From: Terriglobia bacterium | GTDB taxonomy: Bacteria > Acidobacteriota > Terriglobia > 20CM-2-55-15 | DNA: 64,000 nucleotides | Direction of reading: 5' to 3' | Assembly (NCBI GenBank): GCA_036496425.1 | Contig: DASXLG010000068.1 | Span: 350-64,349 of the forward strand | Shown: positions 1 through 57,783 of the stretch, piece after piece | How positions within the stretch are numbered: the stretch's first letter is position 1 | Layout of the letters: each line of letters opens with the position of its first letter | Position numbers and translations under genes: made by a program | Notes under the pieces: model-generated | Database searches by the model: none | Seen by the model: only the letters and a program-made list of their open reading frames with translations | What the model was told of the DNA's origin: nothing

Positions 1-1657
<1,657 letters not shown>

Positions 1658-1668
1658 GGTTTACAAAT

Positions 1669-2680: not shown

Positions 2681-4801
2681 CTATCTGCCGCGGTGAGCCA
2701 ACTCGATCTTGACCAACTCTGACTTCTCGCTATCGCCGAGGTTCTTACCGAAGGTGAGTTCGTCAACCATCTGCTTCACCTTCTGAGCCTCGCGCGCTTG
2801 CTGCCGGGCCATCTTCTCTTCTTCCGCGGCAGTTTCCGGCGCCTCCCCATGCTCACGGACGCGAGCCACATCTACCTGGTTCAAAACGAGGTTGTGATCG
2901 AAATTCTCCAACGGAACTTCATGGCCGCCGGCATAAACGCCGTGCTTGCCGTACTTCTTGTTCCACTCGGCAACGCTGGCGGTCTTGTACATGTTCTCGA
3001 TGATCTTGCGCCAGCCGATTCCGGTGTTGTACGCGCAGAAGGAAATCTCGCCGAGTTGCGTCGCGTACGGAATGATGCACATCTCGGTGCGGCGGAAGTC
3101 ATAGTTGAACAGATCCTGGAACCACATTCCTGCGACGAACAGGAAGTTCCAGGGATCATTGCGGCGTTTCTGGATGTCTTCCATCGTGCGATCGCCGGAC
3201 ACCTTGCCGTAACTCTTGCCGGACAAACCGAAGGACTTGTCGAACTTCCTCATGATGTCCGAGAGCGTCAGGCTCGGCGGTCCGCCGAACGGGTTGTAGT
3301 TCTTCAGAAGCGCCAGCGCCATCATGGCGTTCGAGAACCACTTGCTGCGGCCGGAATCCGTGATCTTCTGCATGTCGGAAACGAGGCCGGGAATGTTCAG
3401 GAACTGAGGAACCGGAGCGAACTCCTTGGTTTCCTTGTTGATCATCATCGCCGTGCCGACGCCGCAGTTGGGATGGCAGCCGCAGCTGACCTGGCCCCAG
3501 TCCGCGCCGGGTCCATGGACGAGGTCCGCGAAGTCCGCGAACGCGCCCATCATCGAAAGCGGGAACCAGTCGCGCGTCGGTTCGGTCACTCCGACCTGTG
3601 TCTTCACGTCGTTCGCGAGGTGCGAAAGTGTGTAGCGCTGGCGCAGACGGCGTTCCGGAGTAATGTCTTCGTCGCGGCCGGTAAATGAAACCGGCTGGAA
3701 GGCAATGAACGCGATCTTCTTCGGGTTGTCCATCGCGAAACGGATGATCGATCCGACCTGATCGTTGTTGACGCCGTTAACCAGCGTCACAACCAGGATG
3801 ATTTCGACGCCGGCTTCGTGCAGATTGTTGATCGCGCGGAGCTTCACATCGAAGAGATTGCCGATCTGGCGATGGCTGTTGGCATCGTTTCCGATACCGT
3901 CGAACTGCAGGTAGGCATAGCGCAGGCCGGCTTCGGCGGCCTGCTTCGCAAATTCCTTGCTCTTGGCGAACTCGATACCGTTCGTCGCCGCCTGGACGCT
4001 GGAATATCCGATCTTGCGGGCATACGCCACCGCATCCAGGAAGTAGGGCGACATGGTTGGCTCGCCGCCGGAGAACTGAATGGACATCTGACGCCGCGGT
4101 TTGATCTGGATGGCGTTGTTCATGATTTCCATGATTTCTTCCCAGGTCAGTTCATGAACGTAGCCCACCTGGTTGGCGTCCATGAAGCAGGGGTCGCACA
4201 TCATGTTGCAGCGGTTCGTCAGATCAACGGTCAATACGGAGCCACGGCCATGTTTGATGGTGCTGCTGCCGTGATTGTGGAGGTCCTTGTCGTTGTGTGC
4301 CGGAATGTCCCGGCCGGGGAAGTTCTGTTCGATCCACTCGAGGAACTTGACGTCGATGGCCATCAGGTCTTCGGTCTTCCCGTGTTGCGGGCATTCCTTG
4401 ACCATCCAGACCTGACCGTCGCGCTCGATGATCGAGGCTTTGACTTCTCCTACCTTCTCATGAAGGAGCTTCGTCCAGTCCGCCTTGCCGTTCGTGATCG
4501 CTTCACGCGCTTCTTTCACGCATTCCGGACAGAGCGAGTCGGTCTGGCGAGGCCAGCCGAGAACCGGCTTGGTCTTCTGCCACGACTTCAGCAACGGCTT
4601 TTCCGTCCACTTCGGCGTGAAAGCCGGATTGGGATTGAACCGGTTAAAGTACTGGATGGTATCGAAGGCAACACCGGCGCCGTAACAAACGGCCGCATCC
4701 ACATACTTCATGGCGCGCTTTCCGAGCTTCGCCTTTCCTTGGGTTCGGGCGCTATAGTCGGTTTGCGGAGTTTCACCTACGGTCTGTTCCAAACTAGACA
4801 A
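2681..4801 (-). CDS. radical SAM enzyme, Tes / GDGT-MAS (MJ0619)-like; candidate membrane-spanning (tetraether) lipid synthase
   Basis: 706 aa, with a TTG start at 4801 behind AAGGAGG. CNMMCDPC is the radical SAM CxxxCxxC motif. The N-terminus has a zinc-ribbon-like SLCPEC...KECPQHG, and there is an extra Cys cluster, VSCGCHPNCG. The subfamily assignment rests on my memory of this domain layout. Confidence 0.55.
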   Translation of the reverse strand: MSSLEQTVGETPQTDYSARTQGKAKLGKRAMKYVDAAVCYGAGVAFDTIQYFNRFNPNPAFTPKWTEKPLLKSWQKTKPVLGWPRQTDSLCPECVKEAREAITNGKADWTKLLHEKVGEVKASIIERDGQVWMVKECPQHGKTEDLMAIDVKFLEWIEQNFPGRDIPAHNDKDLHNHGSSTIKHGRGSVLTVDLTNRCNMMCDPCFMDANQVGYVHELTWEEIMEIMNNAIQIKPRRQMSIQFSGGEPTMSPYFLDAVAYARKIGYSSVQAATNGIEFAKSKEFAKQAAEAGLRYAYLQFDGIGNDANSHRQIGNLFDVKLRAINNLHEAGVEIILVVTLVNGVNNDQVGSIIRFAMDNPKKIAFIAFQPVSFTGRDEDITPERRLRQRYTLSHLANDVKTQVGVTEPTRDWFPLSMMGAFADFADLVHGPGADWGQVSCGCHPNCGVGTAMMINKETKEFAPVPQFLNIPGLVSDMQKITDSGRSKWFSNAMMALALLKNYNPFGGPPSLTLSDIMRKFDKSFGLSGKSYGKVSGDRTMEDIQKRRNDPWNFLFVAGMWFQDLFNYDFRRTEMCIIPYATQLGEISFCAYNTGIGWRKIIENMYKTASVAEWNKKYGKHGVYAGGHEVPLENFDHNLVLNQVDVARVREHGEAPETAAEEEKMARQQAREAQKVKQMVDELTFGKNLGDSEKSELVKIELAHRGR

Positions 4802-6721: not shown

Positions 6722-6795
6722 GCGCCCGTAGCTCAGCTGGATAGAGCATCGGACTTCGAATCCGGTGGCCGGGGGTTCGAATCCCTCCGGGCGCG
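6722..6795 (+). tRNA. tRNA-Arg (anticodon TCG)
   Basis: Hand-folded cloverleaf: acceptor GCGCCCG/CGGGCGC, D arm GCTC..GAGC, anticodon arm TCGGA-CTTCGAA-TCCGG, T loop TTCGAAT. No encoded CCA. Confidence 0.9.
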
Positions 6796-12024: not shown

Positions 12025-12098
12025 GCGCCCGTAGCTCAGATGGATAGAGCGTTGGTCTCCGAAACCAAAGGTCGGACGTTCGAATCGTCTCGGGCGTA
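12025..12098 (+). tRNA. tRNA-Arg (anticodon CCG)
   Basis: Hand-folded: acceptor GCGCCCG/CGGGCGT, D arm GCTC..GAGC, anticodon arm TTGGT-CTCCGAA-ACCAA, T arm GGACG-TTCGAAT-CGTCT. Confidence 0.9.
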
Positions 12099-26199: not shown

Positions 26200-26316
26200 A
26201 TGTCTCAGATAGGTGAACCATTGAGAATCATCGAAGTTGAGCCGCTGGAAGAACCGGTACCCGAGAAAGAAGTACCATTCGAGCAGCCAGCCGATCCAGT
26301 CAAGGTGCCAGCCTAG
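26200..26316 (+). CDS. 38-aa acidic, Pro/Glu-rich peptide (not in ORF track)
   Basis: ATG 26200 lies 6 nt after AAGGAG (26188-26193). The peptide is MSQIGEPLRIIEVEPLEEPVPEKEVPFEQPADPVKVPA. Its TAG stop overlaps the GTG start of the next gene (TAGTG). Confidence 0.55.
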   Translation: MSQIGEPLRIIEVEPLEEPVPEKEVPFEQPADPVKVPA

Positions 26317-27008
26317 TGATCGTCCGAGAACCCATCGTCGGCTGGCGGCAATGGAACTTCATGTATCCGCACTTTCTTGCGAATCTTGGCAACGACACGA
26401 TCTACGTGCCTCGTGAGAAGATCGAAGCGCACTGTGAACCGTATGCGACCATCGGTAGCTTGGTCCTCCGGAAGGCTCACAGCGAGCAGCAGGCACCACA
26501 CCTGACTTGTACGTGTGGCATCTATGCCTACAAGGAGAAGCCGAGACTCCTACGTGAGATAAGAAACATCTATTCTGGATGGGCTGCCCAATCGTCTCGC
26601 AGGCTCGTCTACGGCGAGATTAACCTATGGGGTAAGGTCATCGAGCATGAGGATGGCTATCGTGCGCAGTTCGGCTATCCCCGGCGGCTCTGGTGCACGC
26701 CGGCAATCGAGCCGCTGGCTGGCTGGATTGGTTATGTCTATGGCGTGCCATGCGAACTAATGCCGTCGGGAGACGGCGAAGAAATCAAAAGCAAATCACC
26801 AAGGTCGAAGCAAAAGACTATCGTCACGAAATATGCCTGCGGGCATGAACTAACAATCAAAGCGGAATACAAGAATGGGACGTCGTACTGGAGTGACATG
26901 AAGAATACCCCGATTTACTATGACGTAGGCTTTTGTCCGAAGTGTTTTGCGCTGAACATCAAAGCACAACGAAAGGAAAGGATTAGCGGAATAAACGGCA
27001 TGTCTTAA
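26316..27008 (+). CDS. 230-aa Cys-rich hypothetical protein, phage-orphan-like
   Basis: GWRQW...APHLTCTCGIYAYK...VYGEINLWGKVIEHEDGYRAQFGYP, plus a C-terminal CGHE...CPKC pair. It is visibly more AT-rich than its neighbours. The N-terminal pattern resembles uncharacterised phage/actinobacterial proteins, from memory only. Confidence 0.6.
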   Translation: MIVREPIVGWRQWNFMYPHFLANLGNDTIYVPREKIEAHCEPYATIGSLVLRKAHSEQQAPHLTCTCGIYAYKEKPRLLREIRNIYSGWAAQSSRRLVYGEINLWGKVIEHEDGYRAQFGYPRRLWCTPAIEPLAGWIGYVYGVPCELMPSGDGEEIKSKSPRSKQKTIVTKYACGHELTIKAEYKNGTSYWSDMKNTPIYYDVGFCPKCFALNIKAQRKERISGINGMS

Positions 27009-27196
27009 TATTCCGGCTCGCGGTTCTGACGGGGACCGAACCACAAAAAGCACAAGGAGCCGAATCCATACTATGACCGCCTTTCAGCCCGTTCCGTCCG
27101 CGCCACCTGCCGTAATAGTCTTACATTCGAGCGGATCGCAAGCTGGGCCCCGACTTGCGCGAGTCGACCACAAATTGTCCAGGGAACAGCCCCCGA

Positions 27197-27578
27197 ATGG
27201 CGGGCGGTCGCGTGGAATGCGGCGTTCTCGTGAGCCAAACGCCAACCAGCGCAAGCCTGAGAGCCGGAGCAACAACGATTACCGAATTCGCGAGGTTTCT
27301 TGGAGATTTTCTCGACCGCCCGTTGGTCGATGAGACCGGCCTGACGGGGACGTTCGATCTGGATTTGCAATTCAGCGCCGTGCGCAGCTCTTTGCCGGGA
27401 GAGGCCGTGCCGGGCCGTTTGGGCATTGGGAATGTCGATGAGGTGCAGACCGTTTTTACCGCGATTCAGGAACAACTGGGAGTCAGGCTCGATTCGCAGC
27501 GCCAGGCTCGATTCGCAGCGCCAGGTAACGGAAGTATTCGTGGTCGAACGTGTCCCAGAGCCCGCCGAAAATCCTTAG
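27197..27578 (+). pseudogene. 5'-truncated, frameshifted TIGR03435-family gene remnant
   Basis: ITEFARFLGDFLDRPLVDETGLTGTFDLDLQFS...VFTAIQEQLGVRLDSQRQ parallels the C-terminal third of the intact paralog 33500..34348. A 19-bp tandem duplication (27484-27502 and 27503-27521) breaks the frame. Removing one copy restores ..QVTEVFVVERVPEPAENP*, with the stop at 27576-27578. Confidence 0.75.
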
Positions 27579-27595
27579 TCGAGGCTGACAATTCC

Positions 27596-28010
27596 CAAGT
27601 TTCAGGTTGTAATCCCGCCGTGCGGCTGACAGTTTTCAAGTTTCAGGTTGCAATGAGGTCGTGCGGCTGACAGTTGCCAAGTTTCAGATTGCAACGCGGC
27701 CATGCAGCTAACGGTTTTCAAGTTTCAGGTTGCAATCCGGCCGTGCAGCTGACAGTTTCCAAGTTTCAGGTTGCAATGCGGTCGTGCAGCTGACGGTTTT
27801 CAAGTTTCAGCTTGTAATCCCGCCGTGCAGCTGACAGTTGCCAAGTTTCAGGCTGCAATCCGGCCGTGCAGCTGACGGTTTTCAAGTTTCAGGTTGCAAT
27901 CCGGTCGTGCAGCTGACAGTTTCCAAGTTTCAGGTTGCAATGCGGCCCTGCAGTTGGCAGTTTTCAACGTTCAGGAAGCAATCCCGTCCTGCAGCGCAGC
28001 TGAGATTTTC
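27596..28010. repeat. tandem array 1: 10 units of 41 bp, no spacers
   Basis: Units start at 27596, 27637, 27678, 27719, 27760, 27801, 27842, 27883, 27924 and 27965. The consensus is CAAGTTTCAGGTTGCAATCCGGCCGTGCAGCTGACAGTTTY, and the last unit is degenerate. Confidence 0.9.
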
Positions 28011-28037
28011 CAACGTGACTCCGAACCCATGAAATCC

Positions 28038-28346
28038 TTAGTCGAGAAGCCGGAGAGCTTCGGCGTTCACCCAACCCTGATCAGGGAATCCACGCGCCCA
28101 TTCGGGGGGACTTACACGGCGAACCTCGTGCCAATGAGGTTTTTCGATCCAGTCCAGGAATTTTCGCAGGTTCGCGCGCACATCTTTCGCGGCGCCGTGT
28201 TGCAACAGGGTGGCGGTTATGCCGTTATCCGCCAGGGGCCGGAAACCATTGAACAGTGCTGTGTGGCCGCCGAAACCGTCGGCATCAACGTTGGCGCGGC
28301 CATTGACGTCGGCGCCATGCGCCCGGAGCCAATCGAGATCTTGCCT
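28038..28346 (-). pseudogene. start-less C-terminal remnant of an ankyrin-repeat gene
   Basis: The reverse frame reads RQDLDWLRAHGADVNGRANVDADGFGGHTALFNG...ADNGITATLLQHGAAKDV...LRLLD*. It is bounded upstream by an in-frame TGA (28347-28349) and has no Met in its 102 codons. Confidence 0.55.
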
Positions 28347-31044: not shown

Positions 31045-32118
31045 CTAACCAGCCAGCCGCAAAAGCTTGATCAGGTTTCCGCCGAGGATCGCTTCCTTTT
31101 CAGTGTCTTTCAGATATGTGGCCTGGAGAATCAGGTCGACCGGCGCGGGCCAGTTGTAGGGAACATCGGTTCCGTAGACAATCTGGCTCGATCCGACTTC
31201 CGCAACCAGATGCCGCAAGCCTTCATCGCTGAAAATCATGGAATCCACGAGAATCTGCTGTTTGAAGTACTCCCGCAGGTGTCTTTTATTCCCGCAATTG
31301 GCGATCTGAGTTCGGCCGGTTCCCGGCAGCTGGACGTCACACGCGACATCGGTGCGGCCCAGATATGAAGTCAGGTATCCGCCGGCGTGGGCGGCGCAGA
31401 TCTTCACGCGGGGAAAGCGATCGAGAGCGCCATCGAAAATCATGCGGGAGAGGAAGTACGTGGTCTCGAGCGGATTGCCGATGACATTTCCGAAATCGCC
31501 CAGCGCGCGGTCTTTGACGATATTTGCGGCATTCTGAGGGTGGACGAAGACCAGAACTCCGAGTTCCTGCACCTTTGTCCAGAAAGGATCGTATTTTGGC
31601 GACGACGGAATCTCGCCCGCCACGTGGCCGCCGATACCGACGCCGCGCAGCCCAAGCTTCGTGACCGCTTCATCCAGTTGCTCCGCCGCCATATCGGGAT
31701 GCTGTAAGGCGACGGATGCCAGACCGGCAAAGCGCTCGGAGTGTGCTTTGCACCAGTCGGAGAGTCTCCCGTTCTGAGTTTGGATGATCCGCCGCGCCAG
31801 CTCGCGGTCTGTTTCGTACCACCACGCGCCTTGATGACTGAGAACCTGAATGTCGATCCCTTGCTGATCGAGAACCTGCAGCCGCTGAGGTCCCAGCACC
31901 AGCGGCCCGTTCATGTTGTCGGTGATATTGGGAGCGAGTTTCGTATCCTTGATGAGATTCAATTCTTCAGGCGCAATGAAGTGGCCGTGGATATCGACCA
32001 CCTTGACACGCTTCCTGCCGACCGACACCTGCCGCCGCACGGGTGCAAGGCCCTGCGCGAAGACAGCTCCGCACATCACGCGAGCGGCAACTTGGATGAA
32101 ATCCCGGCGGCTTTGCAT
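31045..32118 (-). CDS. Tat-exported amidohydrolase-2 family metal-dependent hydrolase
   Basis: MQSRRDFIQVAARVMCGAVFAQG is a twin-arginine signal. VVDIHGHF is the metal site, and the C-terminus is ...GTDVPYNW...ILGGNLIKLL. Confidence 0.75.
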   Translation of the reverse strand: MQSRRDFIQVAARVMCGAVFAQGLAPVRRQVSVGRKRVKVVDIHGHFIAPEELNLIKDTKLAPNITDNMNGPLVLGPQRLQVLDQQGIDIQVLSHQGAWWYETDRELARRIIQTQNGRLSDWCKAHSERFAGLASVALQHPDMAAEQLDEAVTKLGLRGVGIGGHVAGEIPSSPKYDPFWTKVQELGVLVFVHPQNAANIVKDRALGDFGNVIGNPLETTYFLSRMIFDGALDRFPRVKICAAHAGGYLTSYLGRTDVACDVQLPGTGRTQIANCGNKRHLREYFKQQILVDSMIFSDEGLRHLVAEVGSSQIVYGTDVPYNWPAPVDLILQATYLKDTEKEAILGGNLIKLLRLAG

Positions 32119-32197
32119 GGAAGGCTCCTTGTCCGGCGGGCTGATGGTATAACAAATTCCGTGCGACGACGTAGTCGCGTTTGAGCGGGATCAGGCT

Positions 32198-32597
32198 GCA
32201 GTGCTGCTCTGGCGACTCCAGCGCTGGAATCGATTCAGCAGTGCTGCTTCGGCGCTTCCAAGGCTGGAATTCGGTTAACAGTGCTGCTGTTTCGGTTGCA
32301 GCGTTGGAGTTGAATCAGCGGCGCTGCTGTCTGAACTCCAGTCTTGGAATCGATTAAGCAGTCCTGCTGTGGTGTTTCCAGCGCTGGAAACAATTTAGCA
32401 GTGTTGCTCCGGTGGGAGCAGTCTTGCAAACGATGGAGCAGCACTGCTGCGGCGGGAGCAGTCCTGGAAAGGCGTGAGCAGCACTGCTCCCGCCGGAACA
32501 GCGTTGGAAACGATTTAGCAGTGCTATTCCGGCGGGAGCAGTCCTGGTAAGGACTCAGCAGTGTTGCTCCGGCATTTCCTGCACAGCAGCGAAATCG
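32198..32597. repeat. tandem array 2: 10 units of exactly 40 bp, no spacers
   Basis: Units start at 32198, 32238, 32278, 32318, 32358, 32398, 32438, 32478, 32518 and 32558. The consensus is GCAGTGCTGCTCCGGCGGGAGCAGTCCTGGAAACGATTTA. Some units carry the palindrome TTCCAGCGCTGGAA, and the unit head flips between GCAGTGCTGC and GCAGCACTGC. Confidence 0.9.
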
Positions 32598-32615
32598 CGC
32601 CTACAGCAGAGCGAC

Positions 32616-32654
32616 CGCAACCTGTAAGTTGCGCACCGCAACCTATAGGTTGCG
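32616..32654. promoter_or_regulatory. two adjacent palindromes (GCAACCT..AGGTTGC) 21 bp apart; operator and/or terminator
   Basis: CGCAACCTGTAAGTTGCG (32616-32633) and the perfect 18-nt palindrome CGCAACCTATAGGTTGCG (32637-32654). The second is followed by TTTTT (32655-32659). Confidence 0.5.
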
Positions 32655-32803
32655 TTTTTCGCCGGGCCTCTTCTTGTCGACATTTGCAAGTTGCTGATTT
32701 TCAAGGACTGGCATTCGAACGGGCGATTGGTACGGCCCGTGCCCTTAGGATGCCGTTCGTTGGAATTCAATCGCGGGCTGCGGCCCGCAGAAAGGAGAAA
32801 GCT

Positions 32804-33445
32804 ATGACACAGACGACACCGATCAAAGCCACGCTGGGTTTCAAGAAAAACTCAGCCAAGGATGTTCTGGCGCGTGTGAACGCGGTCCTCGGTGGGATTT
32901 TCACGGATACGGACGACTACCCGAATCCGCCCATCGATCAGGCGACACTGAAATCGCAAGCCGACGCACTGTCGGCCGGCATTTCGGCGGCGCTCGACGG
33001 CGGCAAGAAAGCCATTGCCGAACGGGAACATCAGAAAGCCGTTGTCATCAAGTCCTTGCGTCAAATCGGACAGTACGCCGAGGCGAACTGCAAGGACGAG
33101 ATAACGATCTTTCTGAAGAGCGGATACAACGCGGTCTCTTCGACGCGTACTCCGGCTGTGCCGCTGTCTGCAGCCTTCCGGAAGATCGTTCCGGGCGGCA
33201 ACAGCGGCCAGATTCTGGTGACGCTCGTGGCCCAGGCCGCCGCGTTCAGTTATGTATTGCGCTGGGCTCCGGCCGCGGCGGGCGGAACGCTCGGCACCTG
33301 GATCGAGCAGCCGGTGGGCAACACTCGTCCGCCGGCGCTGGTAGCCGGGTTGATCCCGGGCACGACCTACGTTTTTCAGGTTCGTGCCGTCACGAAGGCC
33401 GGTTATTCCGACTGGAGTGACTCCGTCACGCGGATCGCCACTTAG
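32804..33445 (+). CDS. fibronectin type III domain protein
   Basis: ATG 32804 follows AAAGGAG. The C-terminal part, LRWAPAAAGG..PGTTYVFQVRAVTKAGYSDWSDSV, is FN3-like. The ORF-track start at 32561 runs through the repeat region. Confidence 0.65.
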   Translation: MTQTTPIKATLGFKKNSAKDVLARVNAVLGGIFTDTDDYPNPPIDQATLKSQADALSAGISAALDGGKKAIAEREHQKAVVIKSLRQIGQYAEANCKDEITIFLKSGYNAVSSTRTPAVPLSAAFRKIVPGGNSGQILVTLVAQAAAFSYVLRWAPAAAGGTLGTWIEQPVGNTRPPALVAGLIPGTTYVFQVRAVTKAGYSDWSDSVTRIAT

Positions 33446-55740: not shown

Positions 55741-57783
55741 ATGAGCATCCCTGCCTCGGAATATCAGGCTCTGCTTGAGGTCTCCGAATCCATCACCCTT
55801 CATAGCGATCTGCCGGCGCTGTTCCACGATCTGTTCCAGCGGCTGCCGCGACTGGTGAGCTTCGATTCGCTTTCGCTTATCCTTCACAATCCCGAACGCA
55901 ATACCATGCGCGTTCATATCGTCGAGATGGAAGGGAGTGCCCGGGTCGACGTGGTGGAGCGGATGGTCGCAGATTCTCCCAGCGGCTTTGCCTGGGAGAC
56001 CCAGCAGCCGCTCGTGGTGGCGGATACGGGACAGGACGAGCGCTTCCCCGAAGCCATGGCGAGCTTCCGTTCGGCTGGAATCAAGTCCTTCTGCATTTTG
56101 CCGCTGACGACGGCGCATCGCCGTCTCGGCAGTCTCGCTTTCGGAAATAAACGCCACGACGCCTACGGAAAAGCCGATCTCGAATTCTTCCGCCTGGTCG
56201 CGCGGCAGGTGGCTGTCGCCGTCGACAACGCGCTCAGCCAGTCGGAAACGCAGCGCTACCAGCAGGAGCTTGCCCAGGAACGAAACCGCCTCCGGCTATT
56301 ACTTGAACTGAACAACAATGTGATTTCGAACCTCGAATTGCGGCCGCTGCTGAGGGCCATATCCAACGGCGTACGCGGCGTGAGGCATTGCGACTACACC
56401 AGCGTGACCATCCCGGAACCCGGCGGGCAGCAGGTGCGCGTGTATGCCCGGAACTTCTCGGAGGTGGAACGCTCGCAGCAGGAAATTGTGCTGCAGGCAA
56501 AAAACAGCCTCTCGGCCGAGGTCATGCAGACGGGCGAGCCGCTTCTTCTGGATCGCGCGGGACTGGCCAGATCGGAATCGCCGAACAATCAACTGCTCGA
56601 AATCGGACTTCGTTCGGTCTGCTTCCTGCCTCTGATCAGCTGCCGGCGGGTTGTCGGAACGCTCAATATAGGAAGCACACAGGACGATGCGTTCGACGAA
56701 TCGGATCTGGATTTCCTGAAACAGGCAGCGGCGCAAATCGCGCTCGCAATCGACAATGCGTTGAGCTACTCGCAAGTCGACGAGGCACGCCAGCACCTCG
56801 CCGTAGAGCGGGTTTATCTCAATGAAGAAATCCAGTCGACGCATAATTTCGAAGAGATCATCGGCGAGAGCGCGCCGCTCAAGGCGGTTCTGGAGAACGT
56901 GAAGACTGTCGGACCGACGGATTCGACGGTGCTTGTGCTCGGTGAAACCGGAACCGGAAAAGAATTGATCGCGCGCGCGATTCACAGCATCAGTTCGCGC
57001 TCCGAACGCACCTTCGTCAAGGTCAACTGCGCCGCAATTCCGCTCGGCCTGCTGGAAAGCGAATTGTTCGGACATGAGAAGGGCGCATTTACGGGCGCCA
57101 TCTCACAGAAGATCGGCCGCTTTGAGCTGGCGCACGAAGGGACGCTGTTTCTGGATGAGATCGGAGACATCCCTCTCGAACTTCAACCGAAATTGCTGCG
57201 CGTTCTTCAGGAGCAGGAGTTCGAACGCCTCGGCAGCACCAGGACAATCCGCATCCATGTCCGGCTGATTGCCGCCACCAGTCAGGATCTGCCGGCAATG
57301 GTTGCGAATCGCTCGTTCCGAAGCGATCTGTACTATCGCCTCAATGTTTTCCCCGTAACGCTGCCGCCGCTGCGCGAGCGGGCCGGGGACGTGGCGCTTC
57401 TGGTCCGCTATTTCGTGGACAAGTATGCGCGACAGATGAACAAGCCTATCGACACCATCTCGCCGGAAACTATGGAAGCGCTGACGCGCTATCACTGGCC
57501 GGGCAATGCGCGCGAACTCCAGAACTTCATCGAACGGGCCGTGATCCTCACGCGCGGTCGAACGCTCACGCCTCCGCTCGGAGAATTGAATCAGCGGATC
57601 GAAAGCTCAGGCGCACGACTGGGGACACTGGCGGAAGGCGAACGCGATCACATCCTCAGAGCGCTCGTCGAAGCGAATTGGGTGCTGGGAGGACCGGGCG
57701 GCGCCGCCGAACGGCTTGGCCTGAAGCGGACTACCTTGTTTTACAAGATGCGGAGGCTCGGGATTACGCGGCCGGGGGGGTAG
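55741..57783 (+). CDS. sigma-54-dependent transcriptional activator with two N-terminal GAF domains
   Basis: Walker A GETGTGKE, GAFTGA (HEKGAFTGA), and a C-terminal Fis-type HTH, AAERLGLKRTTLFYKMRRLGI. Confidence 0.9.
   Translation: MSIPASEYQALLEVSESITLHSDLPALFHDLFQRLPRLVSFDSLSLILHNPERNTMRVHIVEMEGSARVDVVERMVADSPSGFAWETQQPLVVADTGQDERFPEAMASFRSAGIKSFCILPLTTAHRRLGSLAFGNKRHDAYGKADLEFFRLVARQVAVAVDNALSQSETQRYQQELAQERNRLRLLLELNNNVISNLELRPLLRAISNGVRGVRHCDYTSVTIPEPGGQQVRVYARNFSEVERSQQEIVLQAKNSLSAEVMQTGEPLLLDRAGLARSESPNNQLLEIGLRSVCFLPLISCRRVVGTLNIGSTQDDAFDESDLDFLKQAAAQIALAIDNALSYSQVDEARQHLAVERVYLNEEIQSTHNFEEIIGESAPLKAVLENVKTVGPTDSTVLVLGETGTGKELIARAIHSISSRSERTFVKVNCAAIPLGLLESELFGHEKGAFTGAISQKIGRFELAHEGTLFLDEIGDIPLELQPKLLRVLQEQEFERLGSTRTIRIHVRLIAATSQDLPAMVANRSFRSDLYYRLNVFPVTLPPLRERAGDVALLVRYFVDKYARQMNKPIDTISPETMEALTRYHWPGNARELQNFIERAVILTRGRTLTPPLGELNQRIESSGARLGTLAEGERDHILRALVEANWVLGGPGGAAERLGLKRTTLFYKMRRLGITRPGG

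Follow-up and report, generated by a model that had tools for sequence, protein, structure and literature searches.

A fixed-period dyad array in the sigma-54-type promoter module of a Terriglobia fn3-domain gene, most likely a DNA control element

What is a spacer-less array of ten 40-bp repeats doing directly upstream of a small gene in a member of the Acidobacteriota, and does it act as RNA or as DNA? The array in question, here referred to as array 2, lies in a 64,000-nucleotide stretch of contig DASXLG010000068.1 (assembly GCA_036496425.1) of a Terriglobia bacterium; the whole of this stretch is called the window below. A preliminary description of the same DNA had proposed that the repeats might be transcribed as an RNA. 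Our analysis places array 2 at the upstream end of a sigma-54-type promoter module whose gene encodes a protein with a fibronectin type III (fn3) domain, and arrays with nearly the same period occupy the same position at many related loci. We conclude that the array is most likely a conserved, undescribed DNA control element rather than an RNA gene. In the specific form that we favor, and which we hold to be about evenly poised between right and wrong, array 2 would be a DNA-level lattice of phased protein-binding sites within this promoter module.

32198-32597, no strand assigned: array 2, ten 40-bp units, head-to-tail and spacer-less

The repeat register of array 2 is exactly 40 bp over all ten units, with unit heads at 32198 + 40n, just as the preliminary description had it, and no insertion or deletion occurs across 32198-32597. 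The mean pairwise identity among the units is 62%, and because they have diverged to this extent, Tandem Repeats Finder reports the array as two rows. Each unit consists of two 20-bp halves, and each half opens with a 10-bp core of the form sCAGnnCTGs. That is, an A core (of the GCAGTGCTGC type) is followed by a 10-bp GC-rich spacer, a B core (of the CCAGCGCTGG type) and a 10-bp spacer that is richer in AT, such that a near-palindrome recurs every 20 bp along the array. The core positions are kept in 9-10 of the ten units, unlike the variable spacers, and in unit 10 the second half has degenerated. Near-palindromic cores had been reported in every unit as GCAGYRCTGC, and they are indeed there, but this exact form occurs in only 4 units. 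The 14-nt palindrome TTCCAGCGCTGGAA, thought to be carried by several units, occurs once (at 32376), and its 12-nt core twice. The flip in core orientation that had been noticed in units 7-8 (GCAGCACTGC) is real, and in unit 8 the next 10 nt are inverted as well.

Within the window, this organization is confined to the array. The 30-nt pattern made of the two cores has 12 matches in array 2, where shuffled sequences predict 0.02, and zero elsewhere in the 64 kb. Likewise, the 12-mer AGCAGYRCTGCT, with at most one mismatch, is found 9 times in the 64-kb window, against 0.38 expected, and all of these matches are inside array 2. Dyad symmetry extends over 0.70 of the positions of the unit, compared with 0.49 +/- 0.05 in shuffles (P = 0.004). 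In an independent metagenome contig, L001, which is 99.76% identical to the window over 10.5 kb, array 2 is identical. No flanking direct repeat was found around array 2. A solitary stretch at 28237-28261 is 76% identical to the B half-site, spacer and A half-site of the array 2 unit, probably by chance.

The segment to the right of the array contains the following elements.

32616-32633, no strand assigned: distal palindrome CGCAACCTGTAAGTTGCG, 18 bp, centre at 32624.5; a putative enhancer site (upstream activating sequence, UAS) for an enhancer-binding protein
32637-32654, no strand assigned: proximal palindrome CGCAACCTATAGGTTGCG, 18 bp, centre at 32645.5, 21 bp from the distal copy
32687-32699, minus strand: site like that of integration host factor (IHF), AATCAGCAACTTG, a consensus match only (WATCAR-N4-TTR), between the palindromes and the promoter
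32728-32742, plus strand: sigma-54-type promoter TGGTACGGCCCGTGC (TGGTAC-N5-GTGC, GG-N10-GC), 76 bp before the ATG
32773-32788, plus strand: leader stem-loop GCGGGC-TGCG-GCCCGC, read from the sequence, directly before the ribosome-binding site AGGAG (32793-32797)
32804-33445, plus strand: fn3-domain gene, 213 aa, with an N-terminal helical domain and a C-terminal fibronectin type III domain (Pfam fn3)

Palindromes, an IHF site and a GG-N10-GC promoter are the textbook layout of enhancer-dependent systems of the NtrC/PspF type, and the segment between array 2 and the fn3 gene is, on its sequence, a classic enhancer-dependent promoter. The earlier placement of the array in a promoter region was correct, with the sigma-54-type promoter of the fn3 gene lying to its right. 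The GG-N10-GC promoter pattern, whose background rate is 0.6% per 230 bp, has a single plus-strand match in the window, and the transcription start that this match predicts lies ~100-130 bp downstream of the paired palindromes. In the related loci L123-L129 the promoter is found at -75 to -81 from the ATG, and it is also found in many metagenome loci. The distal palindrome is kept in L125, L126, L128 and L129 and is degenerate in L123, and its half-sites change symmetrically, from GCAAC/GTTGC to ACAAC/GTTGT. The block GCAAGTTATTGATT at the IHF-like site is kept in L123, L125 and L126. The leader stem-loop (GCGGG-loop-CCCGC) is common to L123-L129, with loops that vary, and may have a role in mRNA stability or translation control. 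By hand arithmetic on the palindrome centres, the spacing from array to palindromes fits the phasing of the array in the window and does not fit it in L123. As to the protein itself, its 313 homologues are from Terriglobia (Acidobacteriota) wherever the source is named, and its structure is modeled by AlphaFold with a pLDDT of 83; Pfam, PHROGs, a PDB sequence search and Foldseek (PDB, BFVD) recognize only the fn3 domain.

Is the array a peculiarity of this genome? The related loci that were fetched for comparison (designated by L-numbers) come from Terriglobia assemblies and soil metagenomes, with orthologue protein identities of 46-83%; among them are 80 further loci, at 46-69% identity, obtained from a metagenome scan with fn3 protein alignment. 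Most are short metagenome contigs, and because several arrays touch contig ends, the copy numbers of highly homogeneous arrays given below are possibly misassembled. In the long contigs L123, L125 and L126 (79-83% protein identity), a similar array of ~10 x 40 bp lies directly upstream of the gene, and all three share the palindrome pair, the IHF-like block, a TGGCAC-N5-GTGC promoter and the leader hairpin. Arrays with other unit sequences and with periods of 40 or 41 bp are also present in L128 (69%), L129 (64%), L130 (59%) and L132 (57%). Overall, an array was found in ~45 of the ~75 loci that include enough upstream DNA. It has 2.3 to 13.6 units with a period of 40 or 41 bp (39 bp in two loci), is located roughly 130-1000 bp before the ATG, and always ends next to paired inverted repeats, of whatever sequence type. 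Array and promoter occur together in 28 loci and are both missing in 26, and a promoter match without an array was seen in only 1. The 20 remaining array loci miss the strict sigma-54 pattern, several of them solely through variants such as TGGCAT or TGGCGC. The loci L139 and L171, which are of a paralogue type, lack array and sigma-54 promoter alike. A census of a genome collection with a permissive pattern, which asked for four CAGNNYTGS cores at 20-bp steps, returned >120 loci, almost all of them unrelated perfect 10- or 20-bp tandem repeats, and none adjoining an fn3 homologue. One of these loci, L039, on the chromosome of the planctomycete Pirellulaceae bacterium SH449, has a 12-copy 20-bp tandem repeat at 1-244 and, ~2.5 kb away, a sigma-54 activator gene at 2701-4050.

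The only conserved neighbor of the array is an enhancer-binding protein of the FHA type. The gene of this activator, with the domains FHA/Sigma54_activat/HTH_8, is adjacent to the array and divergent in at least 14 loci, and in L200 it lies upstream in the same orientation. A conserved block, GCGTTTTATCGTGCGAGAG-N9-AATCCACTAC, is found between the activator's ATG and the edge of the array and may plausibly serve as the promoter of the activator gene. In L123 and L126 the gene to the left of the array is that of the activator; in L125 it encodes a small protein. The left neighbor in L123, L125, L126 and L130 differs from that in the window, which is the following gene.

31045-32118, minus strand: Amidohydrolase_2 gene, divergent left neighbor of array 2, in this genome only

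Judged by these comparisons, the Amidohydrolase_2 gene is outside the conserved module. Two side observations concern the other end of the module. In L130, L152, L160, L161, L163, L171 and L186-L191 the leader is longer and includes a hairpin, GAGAAGGnCCGG..CCCTTCTC, together with a CCGTTAACC motif, ~40-200 bp before the ATG; because hairpin and motif are also present in L171, which has no array, they suggest a leader RNA element separate from the array. In addition, the 1020-bp contig L213 (JGI 3300036806), whose fn3 gene is identical, has its first base 56 bp before the ATG, a few bases at most from where the sigma-54 promoter would place the transcription start; most probably the assembly simply broke off at the repeats, and the contig end should not be taken as evidence of a transcript.

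To what extent is the array itself conserved? Units of the window type are found in the window, L123, L125 and L126, and again in L161, whose consensus is 72% identical even though its protein is only 54% identical. In a second family (L128, L133, L134, L141, L149 and L158) CAG..CTG is symmetrically swapped to CTG..CAG. A third, with a 41-bp period, combines AGATGmCG-N4-rGCAAGTCCGGsAA with a 17-19-bp palindrome (L130/L152, L163, L174, L200 and L132), and there are several further families besides these. The units of L131, L166 and L176 derive from the perfect palindromes next to the promoter (GGAACAAC|GTTGTTCC), of which they are decayed copies. The period is 39-41 bp in all families, even where the unit sequences cannot be aligned, and in 11 of the 13 families tested the unit is significantly dyad-symmetric. 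Within the window's clade, arrays from different genomes are 0.55-0.68 identical (0.66-0.76 in the cores and 0.44-0.67 in the spacers), and despite this divergence of 32-45% the four related arrays retain an unbroken 40-bp register and 10 units each. In many lineages the units have been homogenized to 90-96% identity, and close relatives differ in copy number (13.6 in L152 vs 8 in L130; 8 in L141 vs 6 in L142; 9.6 in L134 vs 5.4 in L136). The sequences establish the anatomy of the array, its linkage to gene and promoter, and the conservation of its period, dyad symmetry and position. As far as sequences can tell, it is the sequence and the number of the units that turn over quickly, whereas period, symmetry and position persist.

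The paired palindromes next to the array are also of several types, including CRCAACC-N4-GGTTGYG, TTCAAG-N7-CTTGAA, ATCCAGA-N5-TCTGGAT and others. In the cases seen, the type of palindrome follows the type of the C-terminal helix-turn-helix of the activator. These data argue that the helix-turn-helix of the FHA-type activator reads the paired palindromes rather than the array.

To decide between RNA and DNA, we consider what a structured repeat RNA would require. In that case the plus strand would be transcribed and would fold either into extended, imperfect hairpins or into a row of small stem-loops. The predicted plus-strand fold of 32160-32665 has an energy of -280.7 kcal/mol (z = -14.4), 33 kcal/mol better than that of the minus strand, and the plus strand also folds better in L123, L125, L126, L128 and L129. 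Moreover, the swap from CAG..CTG to CTG..CAG between unit families preserves pairing, and among the plus-strand mismatches of the four closest arrays, G.T exceeds A.C by 92:31 (3:1). However, these four arrays are mutually related, and the mismatch counts are hence not independent; the minus strand also reaches z = -12.7, as dyad-symmetric tandem arrays fold well on either strand; and in L130-L132 the strand bias vanishes or turns the other way. The signals that had been taken for the two ends of an RNA do exist as sequences. Nevertheless, scanning the region with the sigma-70 consensus yields no promoter, and the left flank that carries the -10-like box TGGTATAAC (32145-32153) varies between loci. 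Similarly, the hairpin with TTTTT at 32637-32659 is the conserved proximal palindrome: its T-run is missing in L126, L128 and L129, and the hairpin is therefore not a conserved terminator. No conserved promoter for a repeat RNA was found at these loci. In L163 and L200 no more than ~12 bp separate the array from the stop codon of the gene before it, too little to accommodate a separate array promoter, and in the divergent arrangement the promoter block of the activator gene lies outside the array. Rfam gives no match at the gathering score, and the matches at a permissive E-value are far below threshold. The half-sites hold to the consensus independently, and the local palindromes of the array show no compensatory covariation at k = 3-7, as recognition of half-sites by a protein would predict. 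Finally, a period maintained within +/-1 bp, at ~four helical turns, would be unexpected for RNA linkers and is what protein binding along a DNA lattice would predict. The supposed plus-strand transcript of ~490 nt thus finds no support in left flank, T-run or Rfam, and we consider it quite improbable that array 2 functions as a structured repeat RNA. Two further candidates were rejected: a CsrA-type sponge, with GGA motifs numbering 13 vs 12 on the two strands and located, by eye, in predicted stems rather than loops; and coding DNA, with small open reading frames over the arrays on different strands in different loci.

If the array is DNA, it might still be functionless, and here the other array of the window is of interest.

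27584-27993: array 1, ten 41-bp units, 83% identical to one another

Array 1 lies ~4 kb from array 2, between gene ends and outside any promoter region. A perfect 15-bp direct repeat, AAATCCTTAGTCGAG (27569-27583 and 28032-28046), brackets it in the window and in L001 alike, and with this repeat it looks like an insertion with target duplication. Its copy number differs between the two nearly identical contigs (99.8%), being 10 units in the window and 16 in L001, and its unit is present in no other fetched locus. The unit of array 1 is without dyad symmetry (P = 0.51 vs P = 0.004 for array 2). Whether the two arrays are homologous had been left undecided by eye; aligned on both strands, their consensus sequences score 14, compared with 12.4 +/- 2.4 in shuffles (P ~0.28). 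The two arrays are, by these sequence measures, different things without detectable homology. Nearby, at 27484-27521, is a perfect 19-bp tandem duplication, CAGGCTCGATTCGCAGCGC, also found in L001; it sits at the 3' end of an apparently broken DUF3738/TIGR03435-like frame (26316-27008 and 27155-27670).

The main rival to a functional lattice is that array 2 is a tolerated minisatellite. That is, slippage and unequal recombination beside the palindromic enhancer sites would generate and renew a functionless array, and its period would be inherited via in-register recombination. In descriptive terms the array family does answer to a minisatellite or variable number tandem repeat (VNTR), in that it has head-to-tail units and copy-number polymorphism, the window's own array being unchanged in L001. 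The homogenization of units in many lineages, the gene copies without an array (L139 and L171) and the one lineage whose units are visibly degraded versions of the proximal palindromes are all in line with this explanation, as is a rate of divergence above that of synonymous sites; and array 1, unrelated and only 4 kb away, indicates that this genome tolerates such arrays. What a minisatellite would not account for is the persistence of the arrays down to ~46-50% protein identity, almost one-to-one with the sigma-54 promoter, or a period that stays constant at 39-41 bp while the sequences change beyond recognition. Nor would it account for the four arrays of the window's clade, whose 10 units each have diverged without a single indel, for cores that are better conserved than the spacers, or for a dyad symmetry that is present in nearly all families and absent from array 1. 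On balance we regard a tolerated minisatellite as unlikely. Much less likely still is an array of sigma-54 pseudo-promoters, whose units would capture or titrate sigma-54 polymerase in the vicinity of the real promoter. It is true that 9 of the 10 units read TGGAAnnnnnnnAGCAG, i.e., TGG-N9-AGCA with GG-N10-GC spacing, pointing towards the gene; that by hand count the units match TGGCACG-N4-TTGCW at 7-8 of 12 positions, vs 9 of 12 for the real promoter; and that GG-N10-GC is seen by eye in L152-type units too. This spacing, however, is automatic from two conserved cores on a 20-bp lattice, and by a rough estimate matches of such quality are expected by chance in a noticeable fraction of 40-mers. 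Moreover, the element is absent by eye from III-type, L174, L163 and L200 units, and consequently cannot be the conserved function.

We also considered a partition centromere or replication iterons, such as sopC of the F plasmid or the lambda origin. Tandem ~40-bp units with dyad sites do resemble sopC, but the genes called near the array, both in the window and in those related loci that have gene tables, include no ParA, ParB or Rep gene, and the array accompanies a promoter and a single gene at many different places in the genome. The window includes two tRNA genes (6722-6795 and 12025-12098, both on the plus strand) and a thiamine pyrophosphate (TPP) riboswitch (1564-1664, minus strand), which indicate a chromosomal setting. 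A role in partition or replication appears so improbable as to be nearly negligible. Array 2 resembles CRISPR arrays in having regularly repeated partial palindromes, but it is not one of them: its units abut without spacers at a 40-bp period, and no cas gene is among those called within ~8 kb in the window and L001. It is not a dispersed repeat either, whether a repetitive extragenic palindrome or bacterial interspersed mosaic element (REP/BIME) or of the MITE type, as it has no copy of the unit outside the array in 64 kb and no flanking direct repeat.

How, then, might a lattice of protein-binding sites operate? From 5' to 3', the module consists of ~20 dyads at 20-bp spacing, the palindrome pair, the IHF-like site, a TGGYAC-N5-GTGC promoter, the leader hairpin and the gene. 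From this sequence arrangement we infer that protein binds to the array and that binding affects transcription. Specifically, dimers of a DNA-binding protein would occupy the phased sites and form a cooperative nucleoprotein array beside the high-affinity enhancer sites, and this nucleoprotein array would set the amount of activator or polymerase available at the promoter. In the divergent arrangement, which would be ancestral, it could also reach the promoter of the activator gene at the far end of the array. More tentatively, and with less confidence than in the lattice itself, it is possible that Terriglobia possess a hitherto undescribed type of bacterial "extended enhancer", in which a dyad lattice of 300-550 bp, its period fixed at about four helical turns, supports a large nucleoprotein complex beside a sigma-54 promoter, formed with a dedicated factor or with the FHA-type activator and tuned in strength by fast turnover in the number and sequence of the units.

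Several observations weigh against a lattice of binding sites. The type of unit is uncoupled from the type of palindrome and of activator helix-turn-helix, as in L161, where window-type units stand beside TTCAAG-N7-CTTGAA, and the DNA-binding domain of the activator is on this account probably not the reader of the array. In the window, moreover, the activator gene is not adjacent to array 2. What is found there, on the plus strand at ~56600-57765 (~56.6-57.8 kb), is only a paralogue, which shares 39-50% identity with the FHA-type activators beside the array in other genomes; the window does not include the true orthologue. A 20-bp spacing drifts off one face of the helix unless the helical repeat is near 10.0-10.25 bp. 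The excess of plus-strand G.T mismatches is not predicted by a symmetric dimer site. Lastly, the array diverges faster than the fourfold-degenerate sites of the gene, which are 0.68-0.85 identical in the same comparisons, and copy number differs between close relatives, as it would in a weakly constrained minisatellite.

The proximal part of the module has clear precedents. A divergent gene for an enhancer-binding protein, together with a sigma-54 promoter with UAS and IHF sites, is known from pspF-pspA of E. coli and, for NtrC, from glnAp2. The module described here is like these systems in its GG-N10-GC promoter, in the two upstream dyads with an IHF-like site between them and the promoter, and in an activator gene that is often divergent and adjacent. 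It differs in the ~20 further phased dyads (300-550 bp) upstream, which differ in sequence from the two proximal sites and evolve independently of them. Bacterial enhancers are described as having about 2-5 activator sites. For the array, the closest likeness is one of architecture only. The sopC site of the F plasmid has twelve 43-bp tandem units, each with an inverted repeat that is bound by SopB, and ribbon-helix-helix repressors (omega of pSM19035, MetJ) bind arrays of short repeats cooperatively. With these, array 2 shares spacer-less tandem units of ~four helical turns with dyads, and by analogy a dyad lattice is plausible as a platform for cooperative dimer binding along DNA. It is set apart from them by the lack of partition genes nearby, the chromosomal promoter setting and the two different dyads in each unit. 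Mycobacterial interspersed repetitive units (MIRU) are an example of intergenic VNTRs. Array 2 is like bacterial VNTRs in its head-to-tail units of tens of bp, its concerted evolution and its differences in copy number. Unlike them, it is limited to one locus type rather than dispersed, it has a fixed place in a promoter module, and its period and dyad symmetry are conserved across deep divergence. Another intergenic minisatellite has been described inside a Porphyromonas MITE (PMC4596501). A full-text search of the literature found no description of arrays like array 2; a Geobacter genome paper that it turned up is unrelated. Thus, the proximal part is an ordinary enhancer-dependent promoter, and attached to it is a 400-bp dyad lattice for which no described counterpart was found.

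The locus carries a warning for annotation, in that a palindrome with a T-run upstream of a sigma-54 promoter can be mistaken for a terminator, and a repeat array for an RNA gene. It also defines a compact module, consisting of an activator gene, the array, the paired palindromes, an IHF site, a sigma-54 promoter and one small gene. If it is true that a lattice of ~20 phased dyads is built onto a sigma-54 enhancer, this would be a new layer of promoter architecture, and it would provide a natural case of regulation tunable by repeat number in a major, poorly studied soil phylum.

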